This document shows, one piece after another, positions 41,530 through 49,336 of a stretch of DNA of 64,000 nt. How positions within the stretch are numbered: the first letter of the stretch is position 1; each line of letters opens with the position of its first letter. The notes beneath the pieces were generated by a model. It saw only the letters and a program-made list of their open reading frames with translations. It made no database searches and was not told the DNA's origin. The stretch comes from an uncultured Gemmatimonadaceae bacterium (lineage in GTDB: Bacteria; Gemmatimonadota; Gemmatimonadetes; Gemmatimonadales; Gemmatimonadaceae), in contig CAVXGK010000002.1 in NCBI GenBank assembly GCA_963761305.1, positions 3,072,001-3,136,000 on the forward strand, given 5' to 3'. A program made the position numbers and the translations under genes.

Positions 41530-41630
41530 TGTCGAGAGCGTCAGGTGGTCGTCATTGATGGCAGCGACCCAGGTTACGGCTTAAATTATCTATCTTGGTC
41601 GTTCCCGCCTTCTCAGAATTCGGAGTCGCA

Positions 41631-42380
41631 ATGCCCGGTTTCGGCGTGTGGGCCGCGCGTTGGTGGATGCCTGTGGTATTCATCCTCGTCGCCGGACACC
41701 TCACGAACGTGTGTGTCACGCTCTTCTTGCATCGGTCGCAGACCCATCGCGGCGTGCGTCTGCACTACTTCGCGGCGCTCCCGATGCGCCTCTGGCTCTG
41801 GCTCACCACGGCGATCGTCACCAAGGAGTGGGTCGCCTGTCATCGTAAGCACCACGCTTTTGCCGATCGCGAAGGCGACCCGCACAGTCCGCTCCTCGAG
41901 GGACTTCGGAACATCGTCTTCAAGGGCGCTTTCTATTACCGGCGCGCGATCCGCCAGCCCGGCATGCTCGAGAAGTACGGCAAGGGCACCCCGAACGACT
42001 GGATCGAGCGGGCTCTCCTCAGCCGCCTGAACTGGCTCGGCATCGTCATCATGCTAGTGCTCGACGTCTATCTGTTCGGCTTCTTCGTCGGACCGCTCGT
42101 CTGGGGCGTGCAGATGATGTGGATTCCGTTCTGGGCCGCGGGCATCGTGAACGGCGTCGGCCACGCGCTCGGTTATCGCAACTTCCCGGTGAAGGACGAA
42201 AGCCGGAACATTACGCCGATCGCGATCTGGCTTGGCGGCGAAGAGCTCCACAACAACCATCACGCCGATCCCAAGTCCGCGCGCTTTGCCGCGCGCTGGT
42301 TCGAATTCGACATCGGCTGGGTCTACATCCGGCTTCTGCAGTTCTTCCGGCTGGCGAAGGTCGACTACGCTCGCGAGTAG
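41631..42380 (+). CDS. Acyl-CoA (delta-9-type) fatty acid desaturase
   Basis: His boxes LHRSQTH, HRKHH and LHNNHH; GDPHSP; FDIGW. Confidence 0.9.
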   Translation: MPGFGVWAARWWMPVVFILVAGHLTNVCVTLFLHRSQTHRGVRLHYFAALPMRLWLWLTTAIVTKEWVACHRKHHAFADREGDPHSPLLEGLRNIVFKGAFYYRRAIRQPGMLEKYGKGTPNDWIERALLSRLNWLGIVIMLVLDVYLFGFFVGPLVWGVQMMWIPFWAAGIVNGVGHALGYRNFPVKDESRNITPIAIWLGGEELHNNHHADPKSARFAARWFEFDIGWVYIRLLQFFRLAKVDYARE

Positions 42381-46715: not shown

Positions 46716-47456
46716 CTACTGCAGCGTCGCCTGCTCTTGCTCCTCGGGCACCGCCGCCAATGGCAGTTCCGCGTCCATGCCGCTGTCCAACCGCTCGGCG
46801 AGCTGCTCCGCCGGTGAGACGAGCAACATCTGCCCGCGACGCTCCACGAGCCCCCCGTGAATCAAGCGGCCAAGCACGAGCGAAACAGACTCGCGCGTCG
46901 CACCGACGAGCTCACACAGCAGGCGATAGCGCGCCGGGCACAGAACGATGCGCCCTTCCTCTCGCTCGAATGTTTCGTCACGCGCCATTCGGACGAGCGT
47001 CGCTACCACACGCTGCTCGACGCTGAGCGTGGTCAGCTCGCGCAGTCGATCCAGCAGCGATGCGCGTTCCGCCAATAGCTGGCTGATCAGCGCGAGTGAA
47101 TGCTGTGGCTGCTCGCGCACGAACGCGCGAAACCGAGCGGTGCTCAGAAAGAGCGTCTCGGCTTCCTCGTCTGCCCGAGCATCCGTCGCATATCGACGAG
47201 TCGACGAGAGTCCTTCAGAACCGAAGGTCTCGCCGGGTCCCGCGACACACGGCACGAACCCGCGTGACGCGCGAACGCGACTGCGCAACACCACCCGCCC
47301 CCGGGCCACGACGAACAGCCCATCCGCCGGCGCACCGCGCTGATAGATGCCGAATCCCGCTGGCCACGACGCATGCGCCGCATACTCACTGAGGGCGTCG
47401 CGATTCTCCTTCTCGAGACGCGCGCGACCGTAATCCATATCCGACAACTCCACCAT
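46716..47456 (-). CDS. Crp/Fnr family transcriptional regulator
   Basis: IYQRG..ADGLFVV.RGRV, GPGETFG, SVEQRV, HTH LCELVGATRESVS. Confidence 0.88.
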   Translation of the reverse strand: MVELSDMDYGRARLEKENRDALSEYAAHASWPAGFGIYQRGAPADGLFVVARGRVVLRSRVRASRGFVPCVAGPGETFGSEGLSSTRRYATDARADEEAETLFLSTARFRAFVREQPQHSLALISQLLAERASLLDRLRELTTLSVEQRVVATLVRMARDETFEREEGRIVLCPARYRLLCELVGATRESVSLVLGRLIHGGLVERRGQMLLVSPAEQLAERLDSGMDAELPLAAVPEEQEQATLQ

Positions 47457-47485: not shown

Positions 47486-47501
47486 TGCAATGTCTGGGCC
47501 G
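47486..47501 (-). promoter_or_regulatory. Candidate sigma54 (-24/-12) promoter for the Crp/Fnr gene
   Basis: Minus strand CGGCCC-AGACA-TTGCA gives GG-N10-GC, about 30 nt upstream of the ATG. Confidence 0.5.
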
Positions 47502-47605
47502 CTCTTGACAGGCTCCGCTTTTCGACCTTCGTTCTGAAGTTTGATTCAAGGGAGGTCGGCACCTCCATTTCTTTCGGCTGAACCGGCTACGGAACAACGC
47601 ATTTC

Positions 47606-49336
47606 ATGAACTTGGCGGCGGCCGCACCAGAGCAGACCGAATCCACCGTTTCGCAAACCGTGCCCGTGGTCGTTCTCGGGACGGATGCGTTGCTCGCCGC
47701 CGCGCCCTACACCGCCGTGCAACTCGCCCACGCGTGCTTGCAAGCGGGATACGCGAACGTCGTTCCCGCGAGTTGGGGCGATGAGTTGGTCGCCGCCGCG
47801 GTGATTCGACGATTGCCGACGTTCGGTCCCGGTCCGGCGATTCAGTGCAGTTGTCCGATCGTCGCTCATCGTTTGCTCACGACGGGCGGCGATTTGCGGC
47901 CGGTGATGTTGCCGCTCGTATCGCCGCCGGTGGCGCTCGCACGATATCTTCGCGCGGTGTCGCACCCCGCGCGCATGCGCATCACCTACGTCGGTGGTTG
48001 CCCCGGCGCGGTCGACGACTCGATCGACATCCGCATGTCGCCGGGAACACTGATCGGAATGCTCGCCGAACGACAGATCGTCCTCGATGACCAGCCACGC
48101 GTTTTCGAGTCGATCATTCCGCCTGACCGGCGCCGCTATTTCTCACAGCCCGGCGGCGTCCCGTCCGCGGAGCGACTGTGGACCGACCTCGGCGCGCGCG
48201 CGCTCGTCGACGTCGAGTCGGACGATTTCGTGAGCGAGATCGCCGACCATCTTCTCGCCGGCGAGCACGTGTTGATGGACGTCGCACCGCGACTCGGCTG
48301 CGTGTGCAGCGGCGCGATCGCCGGCACTCCGGCGCGCGAAGCGCGCGCGAGCGTTGTCGCGCTCGAGCCGCCGCGCTCCAGCGCGCCGGTGGTCGAAGAG
48401 CAGACACCGCTCAATCTGGATCTGCCGATTCCCGCCGTTCCGCGCACGCCGGTGGACGTCGTGCTTGGGTCGTCGCGCACGCCGTCGTCTCCGCTCGGAC
48501 TGCCGAACCCGCCAGGGGCGCATCGCAATACGCCGACCGTCACCGAACCACGCATTTCACGAACGCCGCCTCCGCCGCCGGCTCGGCCGATTACCGGCGG
48601 CGTGGTTCCCACGGCGAGGCACGCCGACGGGAAGTCACTCCCGCGGGCGTATGTGGCGCGTCGCCGTCACTCGGCACCAAAAGGAAATCCGTCAGTTCCT
48701 CCGCCCGCGTCGAACGAACAGGCGCCCGGCGCGTCGATCGCGCCCGAGACGGCGGATGTCGCGCTCGCAGCGTCGATCGAGATGCCGCCGCCGGCCGCGA
48801 CGGAGACGAGCGTGGCGGAGCCGCAAGTCGAAGCGACGAACGTTTCGACGGTCGAGGTGCCGAGCACCAAAGCACCGAGCGCGGAAGCGCCGAGCGTCGA
48901 AGGGCCGACAACCGAAGCGAGAATCGTCGGACCGTCACCCGACGAAACGTCTTCGGTCGTCGCCGTCACGGATGCCGACAGTGAGAAACTGATCGCGGCA
49001 ACGGACGAACCGGAGTCTTCGGCGGCCGCTGACGCCTATACGGATCTGAATCAGTTGAACTTCGAAGGACTGGTGCCGCCGCCGGAGCGGCTCCCGATTT
49101 TTACGCCGACGCCTCCTTCCACAATCGCGGTGTCGACGAGGCCATCAGACCCAACGCCATCAAACCCAACGCCGTCAAACCCGACACCAACGACCGTTGC
49201 GGCACCGCGCGTACAATCGCGTATCGCGATGTACGTCATCGCCGTCGCCATTGTGATCCTGGTCGTCGCCGGCGTTGCGTACGTGATGGGGCGGTCGGCG
49301 CAGACACCGAACGCGCCGACCGAGCAGCTCCCCTGA
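47606..49336 (+). CDS. Tail-anchored protein: N-terminal degenerate [FeFe]-hydrogenase H-domain / Nar1-like domain, Pro/Ser/Thr-rich linker, C-terminal TM helix
   Basis: QLAHACLQAGY..V.PASWGDELV, IQCSCPIV, LVSPPVALAR, ITYVGGCPG, YFSQPGG and MDVAPRLGCVC appear in H-domain order. TM IAMYVIAVAIVILVVAGVAYVM. Confidence 0.65.
   Translation: MNLAAAAPEQTESTVSQTVPVVVLGTDALLAAAPYTAVQLAHACLQAGYANVVPASWGDELVAAAVIRRLPTFGPGPAIQCSCPIVAHRLLTTGGDLRPVMLPLVSPPVALARYLRAVSHPARMRITYVGGCPGAVDDSIDIRMSPGTLIGMLAERQIVLDDQPRVFESIIPPDRRRYFSQPGGVPSAERLWTDLGARALVDVESDDFVSEIADHLLAGEHVLMDVAPRLGCVCSGAIAGTPAREARASVVALEPPRSSAPVVEEQTPLNLDLPIPAVPRTPVDVVLGSSRTPSSPLGLPNPPGAHRNTPTVTEPRISRTPPPPPARPITGGVVPTARHADGKSLPRAYVARRRHSAPKGNPSVPPPASNEQAPGASIAPETADVALAASIEMPPPAATETSVAEPQVEATNVSTVEVPSTKAPSAEAPSVEGPTTEARIVGPSPDETSSVVAVTDADSEKLIAATDEPESSAAADAYTDLNQLNFEGLVPPPERLPIFTPTPPSTIAVSTRPSDPTPSNPTPSNPTPTTVAAPRVQSRIAMYVIAVAIVILVVAGVAYVMGRSAQTPNAPTEQLP
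49142..49186 (+). repeat. Three degenerate 15-bp tandem repeats (PS[D/N]PT) in the linker
   Basis: ccatcagacccaacg / ccatcaaacccaacg / ccgtcaaacccgaca. Confidence 0.8.

Follow-up and report, generated by a model that had tools for sequence, protein, structure and literature searches.

Introduction

In the [FeFe]-hydrogenase CpI, whose residue numbering is used throughout, we take C300, C355, C499 and C503 to be the ligands of the H-cluster, and K358 presumably holds a cyanide. Lys358 and Glu361 belong to the di-iron pocket. C299, the proton-transfer cysteine, and its replacement in group C and D enzymes are treated in the accessible text of PMC8163306 and PMC10407848. According to the available part of PMC11216029, archaeal enzymes from hosts mostly lacking maturases are active after heterologous production. 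In the accessible sections of PMC12621388, the clusters bound by yeast Nar1 are of the [4Fe-4S] and [2Fe-2S] types, and two are O2-labile. The HydDB classification excludes NARF-type homologues and, in the portion available, names no family of the kind described here (PMC5037454).

Here, we describe a gene from an uncultured Gemmatimonadaceae bacterium, located in a 64,000-nucleotide stretch of DNA (the window), whose product we call the H-like protein. A preliminary description had read it as a Nar1-like Fe-S sensor or scaffold held at the membrane, and had missed its probable hydrogenase-GGDEF origin, a second new cysteine (C81), a conserved linker motif and the size of the family. We found no description of this family in the full-text literature, most subscription papers lying outside the scope of that search, and its members are named in databases either 'hypothetical protein' or by automatic Fe_hyd_lg_C labels. 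The family is real and well conserved, and represents an apparently undescribed way in which aerobic bacteria have remodelled the H-domain.

Results

The head of the H-like protein is an H-domain

The gene and its conserved domain are as follows.

47606..49336, + strand: the whole H-like gene, 576 aa, comprising an H-domain-like head, a probably disordered linker and a single C-terminal transmembrane (TM) helix
47645..48391, + strand: H-domain-like fold, aa 14-262, without ferredoxin and without a C-terminal Cx2Cx4Cx16C module

The head is an H-domain by fold. This compact region of approximately 250 residues folds confidently, and it scores 21.8 bits (E 1.7e-4) against Pfam Fe_hyd_lg_C, just under the cut-off of 22.1, as the sole match to that family in the host genome. 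A PDB sequence search with the single domain gave no match at E<=10, and one with the family profile gave three matches only, all low-complexity; the family is tied to the solved hydrogenases through its structure and the group C intermediates. The profile of the H-like family matches group C HydS with Prob 98.1. Fold searches returned no Nar1, TmHydS or TamHydS structure, which says nothing about likeness to them. The protein contains six cysteines (44, 81, 83, 132, 232 and 234) and has no Fer4 Pfam match. The preliminary description had been right in proposing H-domain homology, the absence of an N-terminal ferredoxin and, probably, closest kinship with group C, and the sequence blocks that it quoted all occur, in the order given, in the 576-aa open reading frame.

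The dN/dS ratio of the domain was 0.06-0.07 among six close relatives and 0.15-0.28 among five more distant ones. In one RNA run, of which a small share (0.07) was examined, contigs lay over parts of the neighbouring CRP gene and not over the H-domain.

The cluster site is remodelled around conserved cysteines

Residues were mapped by alignment to group A and group C proteins.

47846..47854, + strand: P1, C81-S82-C83; C83 corresponds to CpI C300 (kept), S82 to C299, and C81 lies at S298 (new Cys)
47999..48001, + strand: P2, C132, corresponding to CpI C355
48125..48136, + strand: D174-R-R-R177, in place of the small residues before CpI F417; ERRR in the GGDEF sister form
48290..48307, + strand: P3; R229 lies at CpI C499 (ligand lost), C232 corresponds to C503 (kept), and C234 lies at N505 (new Cys)

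Conservation was counted in the best 150 of 479 representatives (50% clustering), which are 45-94% identical. Within these best 150, cysteine occupies the C83 position in 148 of 148 aligned proteins, the C81 position in 143 of 148, the C132 position in 150 of 150, the C232 position in 147 of 149 and the C234 position in 148 of 149, so that C83, C132, C232 and C234, whose conservation had been put forward as a check, are near-invariant. The residues of the DRRR motif are kept in 150, 150, 148 and 150 of the same 150. C44, which looks structural, is Cys in 134 of 148 and L, V or I in 13 of 148. The position of CpI C299 holds Ala, Ser, Val or Thr in all 148 proteins, and a cysteine at the position of residue 229 was seen in only 3 of 268 proteins examined. 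In P2, the following helix with K358 and E361 (about eight residues) is deleted; that the P2 Lys/Glu and the first cysteine of P3 are missing had likewise been noted beforehand.

Because no cysteine occurs at the C81 or C234 positions in any of 12 aligned group A, group C or GGDEF-form rows, both are gains. The H-like family keeps three ancestral cluster cysteines and two new ones at 97-100%. This strict retention and gain, in a family whose GGDEF sister often loses the P1 cysteine, argues for a selected thiolate site. Against a predicted Fe-S site counts the absence of one of the four ancestral ligands. Two CxC pairs suit Zn or [2Fe-2S] as well as [4Fe-4S].

Hydrogen chemistry and the host genome

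A search of the host genome (93% complete) returned nothing for HydG and, for HydE and HydF, matches below the cut-off only; the preliminary description had seen no hydEFG in the window and had suggested such a search. HydG was above the cut-off in 0 of 70 Gemmatimonadaceae genomes, 0 of 125 genomes of the sister family and 3 of 301 genomes of the phylum, all three from one distant family; two more genomes (G057, G163) gave partial matches. The partial match in G163 (C53:12299-13204) carries an internal TAG stop, and the only Fe_hyd_lg_C match of that genome is a GGDEF form without H-site cluster cysteines. Neither a NiFe hydrogenase nor a second FeFe hydrogenase was found in the host genome, in which COX1 and SufB are present.

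The absence of maturases alone does not exclude activity, because of the archaeal precedent in the available part of PMC11216029; what speaks against H2 chemistry is that an H-cluster ligand and residues of the pocket are gone. The H-like protein is almost certainly not an H2 enzyme, as had been proposed.

Family distribution and the GGDEF sister form

All 24 other genomes of the genus have the H-like gene, as do 116 of 201 Gemmatimonadaceae genomes, some of which carry two or three copies; since it was not found in 85 of the 201, it appears dispensable in aerobic relatives. Homologues carry Gemmatimonadaceae as source name, and an Atlas search with the family returned its own Gemmatimonadota clusters only. 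The unpublished genomes G088, G209, G341 and G184 contribute one row each to the genome tallies, and the conclusions are independent of them. In L102, L107 and L108 a more divergent second paralogue lies beside an apparent lysine/diaminopimelate biosynthesis cluster, by our reading of the sequences.

Relatives of approximately 30% identity were found in a sister family, where 114 of 125 genomes have one, and in nine genomes belonging to two further families. All 12 sister-family proteins that were translated are Fer4-H-FeS-GGDEF cyclases (Pfam was run on six). Five proteins of the two further families likewise have a C-terminal GGDEF domain, and two of these five lack the ferredoxin and FeS modules. 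The GGDEF form was not found in the 201 Gemmatimonadaceae genomes, the five matches at E<=1e-28 all being the H-like form. The P1 cysteine is lost in 10 of 17 sampled GGDEF-form proteins; around one member that keeps it, 119 of the 120 nearest relatives do so as well. Two GGDEF-form proteins (L089:301-2217 and L090:295-2268) retain the H-domain but neither ferredoxin nor FeS module nor any H-site cysteine, which suggests a metal-free role for the domain. Because the GGDEF sister often keeps the domain without any cysteine, the core job of the H-domain may not need metal. This loss cuts both ways: the domain can persist without metal, yet the H-like family has fixed and extended its thiolates.

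In seven sister loci the gene order is gcvT, mogA-like, sigma-54 activator, cyclase and a 248-aa ORF, the third gene being uncalled in one, and in most a MASE9-HD-GYP gene lies further along the module (L021-L027). The labels gcvT and mogA are our presumptive reading of the sequences, and the 248-aa ORF matched no known family in the Atlas. At C1:425881-434146 of the host genome (G000) the order of the module is kept without the cyclase, with about 300 bp at its slot.

In a quick IQ-TREE analysis of 58 H-domains, the H-like family formed one branch (SH-aLRT 99) on a long stem of 1.72 and joined the GGDEF form (SH-aLRT 98) apart from groups A and C. This placement is provisional: the references were six group C and seven group A rows, with no Nar1, and long branches meet. 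Because the GGDEF sister keeps the group C architecture, the direction of change would be loss of accessory domains. The sister cyclase was probably built on a group C scaffold, and the H-like family would derive from such a hydrogenase-GGDEF cyclase.

A constant head on exchangeable anchors

The remainder of the protein comprises the following features.

48392..49228, + strand: linker, aa 263-541, Pro/Ala/Thr/Ser-rich, low-complexity, poorly conserved
48608..48667, + strand: conserved linker motif of 20 residues, aa 335-354, core LPRAY..RR
49223..49291, + strand: single TM helix, about aa 540-562, preceded by basic residues and followed by a 14-residue tail

Judged by its composition (47% Pro, Ser, Thr and Glu over aa 263-541), the linker is probably disordered. 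Of the best 150 of 479 representatives, 122 carry its motif, and nothing below E 0.16 resembles this motif elsewhere in the host genome. The only hydrophobic segment of the protein peaks at residue 540. A TM helix occurs in 109 of the best 150 of 479 representatives, many of the others being fragments; K/R residues before it equal or exceed those after it in 88 of the 109, and the topology is probably N-in. The outer tail exceeds 60 residues in 39 of the 109, mostly with a coiled-coil-like end. Long outer tails (P0028, P0034, P0054, P0066 and others) are rich in D-S-A/L/I triplets, which we take to resemble the Bacteroidota O-glycosylation motif.

Among 55 genome-derived loci the protein ends in a TM helix in 38, in a helical domain with the terminal residues FRDP in three, and in neither in 14. 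The membrane tether foreseen in the preliminary description is thus present in this protein and is no fixed trait of the family, since 17 of the 55 loci lack a TM helix. Of 13 TM-less loci that were checked, one has a frameshift and three encode an almost bare domain; assembly error was rejected as a general explanation, 12 of the 13 having no displaced TM segment (hydropathy >=1.9). The frameshifted one is the orthologue L003:1438-2625, whose TM-coding part lies in another frame, by frameshift or assembly error.

The FRDP domain, seen in 7 of 150 representatives, has a match at E 2e-25 in the host genome, in the middle part of a tandem DnaA-like ATPase (L091:9905-11827; G000:C2:1254904-1256856, - strand). 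This ATPase has no DNA-binding domain match, and its neighbours are CheW, CheB, CheD, CheR, DUF4388-TPR, roadblock and small-GTPase genes. Some H-like family members have as their tail the middle domain of this ATPase and a motif from its C-terminus. Because the tails vary among TM helix, FRDP domain and none, the anchor is exchangeable and the head constant.

A divergent CRP-family gene and its promoter

Upstream of the H-like gene lie three features.

46716..47456, - strand: CRP/FNR-family regulator, divergent (Pfam cNMP_binding, HTH_Crp_2)
47487..47501, - strand: GG-N10-GC motif, sigma-54-type (-24/-12), in the CRP promoter, conserved
47505..47533, + strand: TTGACA-17 nt-TTCGTT, putative weak sigma-70 promoter of the H-like gene

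The CRP gene likely starts at the ATG at 47456 rather than at the TTG at 47597, and its product lacks the N-terminal Cys cluster of FNR. With CRP scored at E<=1e-35, 75 of the 201 family genomes have both genes, 41 the H-like gene only, 33 the CRP gene only and 52 neither, a distribution that rules out an obligate pair; the Fisher p of 3e-4 for the association is an overstatement, since kin are not independent. Of the 75 genomes with both, 73 have the two genes side by side and head-to-head. Synteny also extends to the hydrolase, M28 peptidase, Smr and arg genes around the H-like gene, and because the whole region is conserved in this way the adjacency is weak evidence of function.

We take the GG-N10-GC motif to be a sigma-54 consensus match on the CRP strand. 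It is present at 33 of 35 loci with an adjacent CRP gene and at 0 of 20 loci without one, and on the latter count it was rejected as a promoter of the H-like gene. The host genome contains rpoN, and two similar sigma-54 motifs elsewhere in it gave no lead. A sigma-54-driven CRP regulator recalls, we believe, mrpC of Myxococcus. The TTGACA element occurs in 22 of 23 genus loci and was not called by a strict promoter scan; it may serve the H-like gene as a weak sigma-70 promoter.

Two other genes of the window deserve mention. A YggX-family Fe(II)-trafficking gene (PF04362; 42443-42796, + strand) lies 4.8 kb from the H-like gene and is also nearby in L034 and L060; the synteny may be incidental. 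An ORF at 41595-42380 (+ strand) with three histidine boxes has no Pfam match at E<=1 and, as we read it, resembles a membrane fatty-acid desaturase.

Discussion

A hydrogenase domain reused as a candidate Fe-S sensor

We favour, at a probability of roughly 0.55, the view that the H-like protein is a non-catalytic cytoplasmic Fe-S sensor or adaptor that descends from the input domain of a diguanylate cyclase, itself hydrogenase-derived. Its head, an H-domain, has lost an H-cluster ligand and pocket residues, in a host where maturases were not found. From the tree, the architecture and the synteny, an ancestor of the Gemmatimonadaceae would have lost the GGDEF domain together with the ferredoxin and C-terminal Fe-S modules, and its H-domain would have moved to a new locus. 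In the former [4Fe-4S]H site, C83, C132 and C232 would be joined by C234 and/or C81 as substitutes for C499, and the rebuilt site may bind one Suf-made cluster, [4Fe-4S] or [2Fe-2S], whose occupancy or oxidation state would track O2, redox or iron. Because the protein has no electron relay and no output domain, the state of the cluster would be read out through a partner protein or the conserved linker motif. The long linker and the exchangeable C-terminal anchor, here a TM helix, may set the place of the sensor in the cell. The Fe-S reading has a precedent in the O2-labile clusters reported for the maturase-free H-domain of yeast Nar1 in the accessible text of PMC12621388.

The main rival is a scaffold with structural metal: the rebuilt cysteines would hold Zn, or else a cluster with a structural role only, and the head would bind other proteins as part of a bitopic factor for localisation or polarity. 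We regard this as somewhat unlikely. ZitP and RodZ share such a general layout: cytoplasmic head, linker, TM helix and optional periplasmic coiled coil. The two CxC pairs would fit this role, as would the coiled-coil-like ends of most long outer tails (39 of 109 TM members), the survival of the sister domain without any H-site cysteine, and the use, instead of the usual anchor, of the inter-AAA domain from a tandem DnaA-like ATPase that sits among Che, roadblock and small-GTPase genes, seen in 7 of 150 representatives and at 3 of 55 loci. However, the three retained cysteines are exactly the ancestral cluster ligands, the gene lies away from polarity and division genes, and near-bare, tether-free domains occur.

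The Fe-S sensor-adaptor may also be put in a bolder form, as a second, bacterial invention of the Nar1 trick. A sensory-hydrogenase H-domain freed from its cyclase would act as a new kind of two-CxC, O2-labile Fe-S switch on interchangeable anchors (a TM helix with or without a periplasmic coiled coil, or else a module taken from the DnaA-like ATPase encoded at the Che/roadblock/GTPase locus), coupling O2 or redox state to motility or polarity. We consider this specific version unlikely; if true, it would provide such a coupling in a major phylum of soil aerobes.

It is improbable that the two divergent genes form a split FNR, with a membrane-held Fe-S domain that sequesters or releases the Cys-less CRP regulator. 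Their head-to-head arrangement in 73 of 75 genomes with both, the back-to-back promoter elements and the lack of an FNR-type Cys cluster in the CRP protein would fit such a pair. Yet of 201 genomes 41 carry the H-like gene and lack this CRP, 33 carry this CRP and lack the H-like gene, the conserved promoter motif goes with CRP and not with the H-like gene, and in a region syntenic throughout (hydrolase, M28 peptidase, Smr, arg) the adjacency may be inherited order.

A carrier or repair scaffold, a functional counterpart of Nar1 passing clusters to clients near the membrane, would account for the fold and the maturase-free state, one changed ligand could make the site labile, and a YggX-family gene lies 4.8 kb off. 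We judge it quite improbable: the suf genes are distant (C2:2.82 Mb versus 3.12 Mb), a search of 201 family genomes failed to find the gene in 85, the ancestry is that of a signalling input domain, and the second site and targeting tryptophan of Nar1 are missing. Finally, an ultra-minimal H2-reactive or H2-sensing [FeFe]-hydrogenase with a maturation route not known is hardly credible, for although the full H-domain fold and the bridging cysteine are kept, archaeal group E enzymes of about 286 aa, most from hosts without maturases, are active heterologously (available part of PMC11216029) and C299 loss is tolerated by group C/D enzymes (accessible text of PMC8163306), C499 is lost, the K358/E361 helix is deleted, the bulky DRRR stands where small residues line the site, no electron-relay cluster is present, and the aerobic host has no other FeFe or NiFe hydrogenase that was found for it to regulate.

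The family places an [FeFe]-hydrogenase H-domain under strong purifying selection in aerobes where maturases were not found, and offers a traceable path from a group C-type scaffold, through a hydrogenase-GGDEF cyclase, to a free tethered domain with a rebuilt ligand set. It is thus a natural test case for the rise of Nar1/CIAO3-like proteins and for use of the H-domain without a di-iron site, and the compact head should express easily. Some members bear the label '[Fe-Fe] hydrogenase large subunit C-terminal domain-containing protein', and FeFe hydrogenases can be overcounted in soil Gemmatimonadota as a result. For marine Gemmatimonadota, a survey gives few FeFe hydrogenases in the part of the paper available (PMC11316326), and its Supplementary Fig. 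16 may include H-like proteins.

Comparison with known systems

With [FeFe]-hydrogenases of any group the H-like protein has the H-domain fold in common. It differs in its incomplete set of the four H-cluster cysteines (C300, C355, C499 and C503), R229 standing for C499, in the deletion of the P2 Lys358/Glu361 helix, and in the lack, over the cut-off in the host genome, of the usual but not universal HydE, HydF and HydG. Closer are group C HydS (M2f; the kinase-linked L081 and L082) and group D TamHydS (M2e), whose H-domains are likewise compact and insert-free with C299 replaced; the kinase-linked group C proteins also have the P3 spacing one residue shorter. The N-terminal pair of [4Fe-4S] clusters of these proteins, described in the accessible text of PMC8163306, is absent here, where there are six cysteines and no Fer4 Pfam match. 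Their C-terminal Cx2Cx4Cx16C, found in the GGDEF sister as PF04060, is absent as well, no cysteine following residue 234. The H-like protein has no PAS or kinase output and no HydEFG, and it further differs in the loss of C499 and K358/E361, the two new cysteines, the linker with its TM helix, and the aerobic host. Archaeal group E [FeFe]-hydrogenases approach it in their H-domain-only size (about 286 aa versus about 250), but they are catalytically active and come from anaerobes, whereas the H-like protein is without H-cluster ligand and pocket residues.

Nar1/NARF/CIAO3 (IOP1) proteins share with it an H-domain without maturases, and at site 1 of Nar1, homologous to the [4Fe-4S]H site, it keeps three of the four Cys positions. 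Fe-S binding and O2 sensitivity have been demonstrated for Nar1 and are predicted for the H-like protein, which lacks the N-terminal four-Cys site 2 of Nar1 (accessible text of PMC12621388). Nar1 is eukaryotic and soluble and has a C-terminal Trp for the CIA targeting complex; the H-like protein is bacterial and TM-anchored, without that Trp, and ends in a TM helix and a Pro-terminated tail. Its origin was probably independent of Nar1, by a tree that held no Nar1. The proposed relation to Nar1 thus holds as an analogy and fails as membership, three Nar1 features having failed. Bitopic scaffolds of the ZitP/RodZ type share the cytoplasmic head, linker and single TM helix (38 of 55 loci), with a zinc-ribbon or HTH head in place of the H-domain.

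The ferredoxin-H-FeS-GGDEF cyclases of other Gemmatimonadota families, known as database entries, form a sister clade at approximately 30% identity and share with the H-like family GDEL, (D/E)RRR..S..GG.P, EPPR and the P2 deletion. The sister form keeps the ferredoxin, FeS and GGDEF modules, whereas the H-like family has dropped these, gained C81 and C234, and occupies a different locus.
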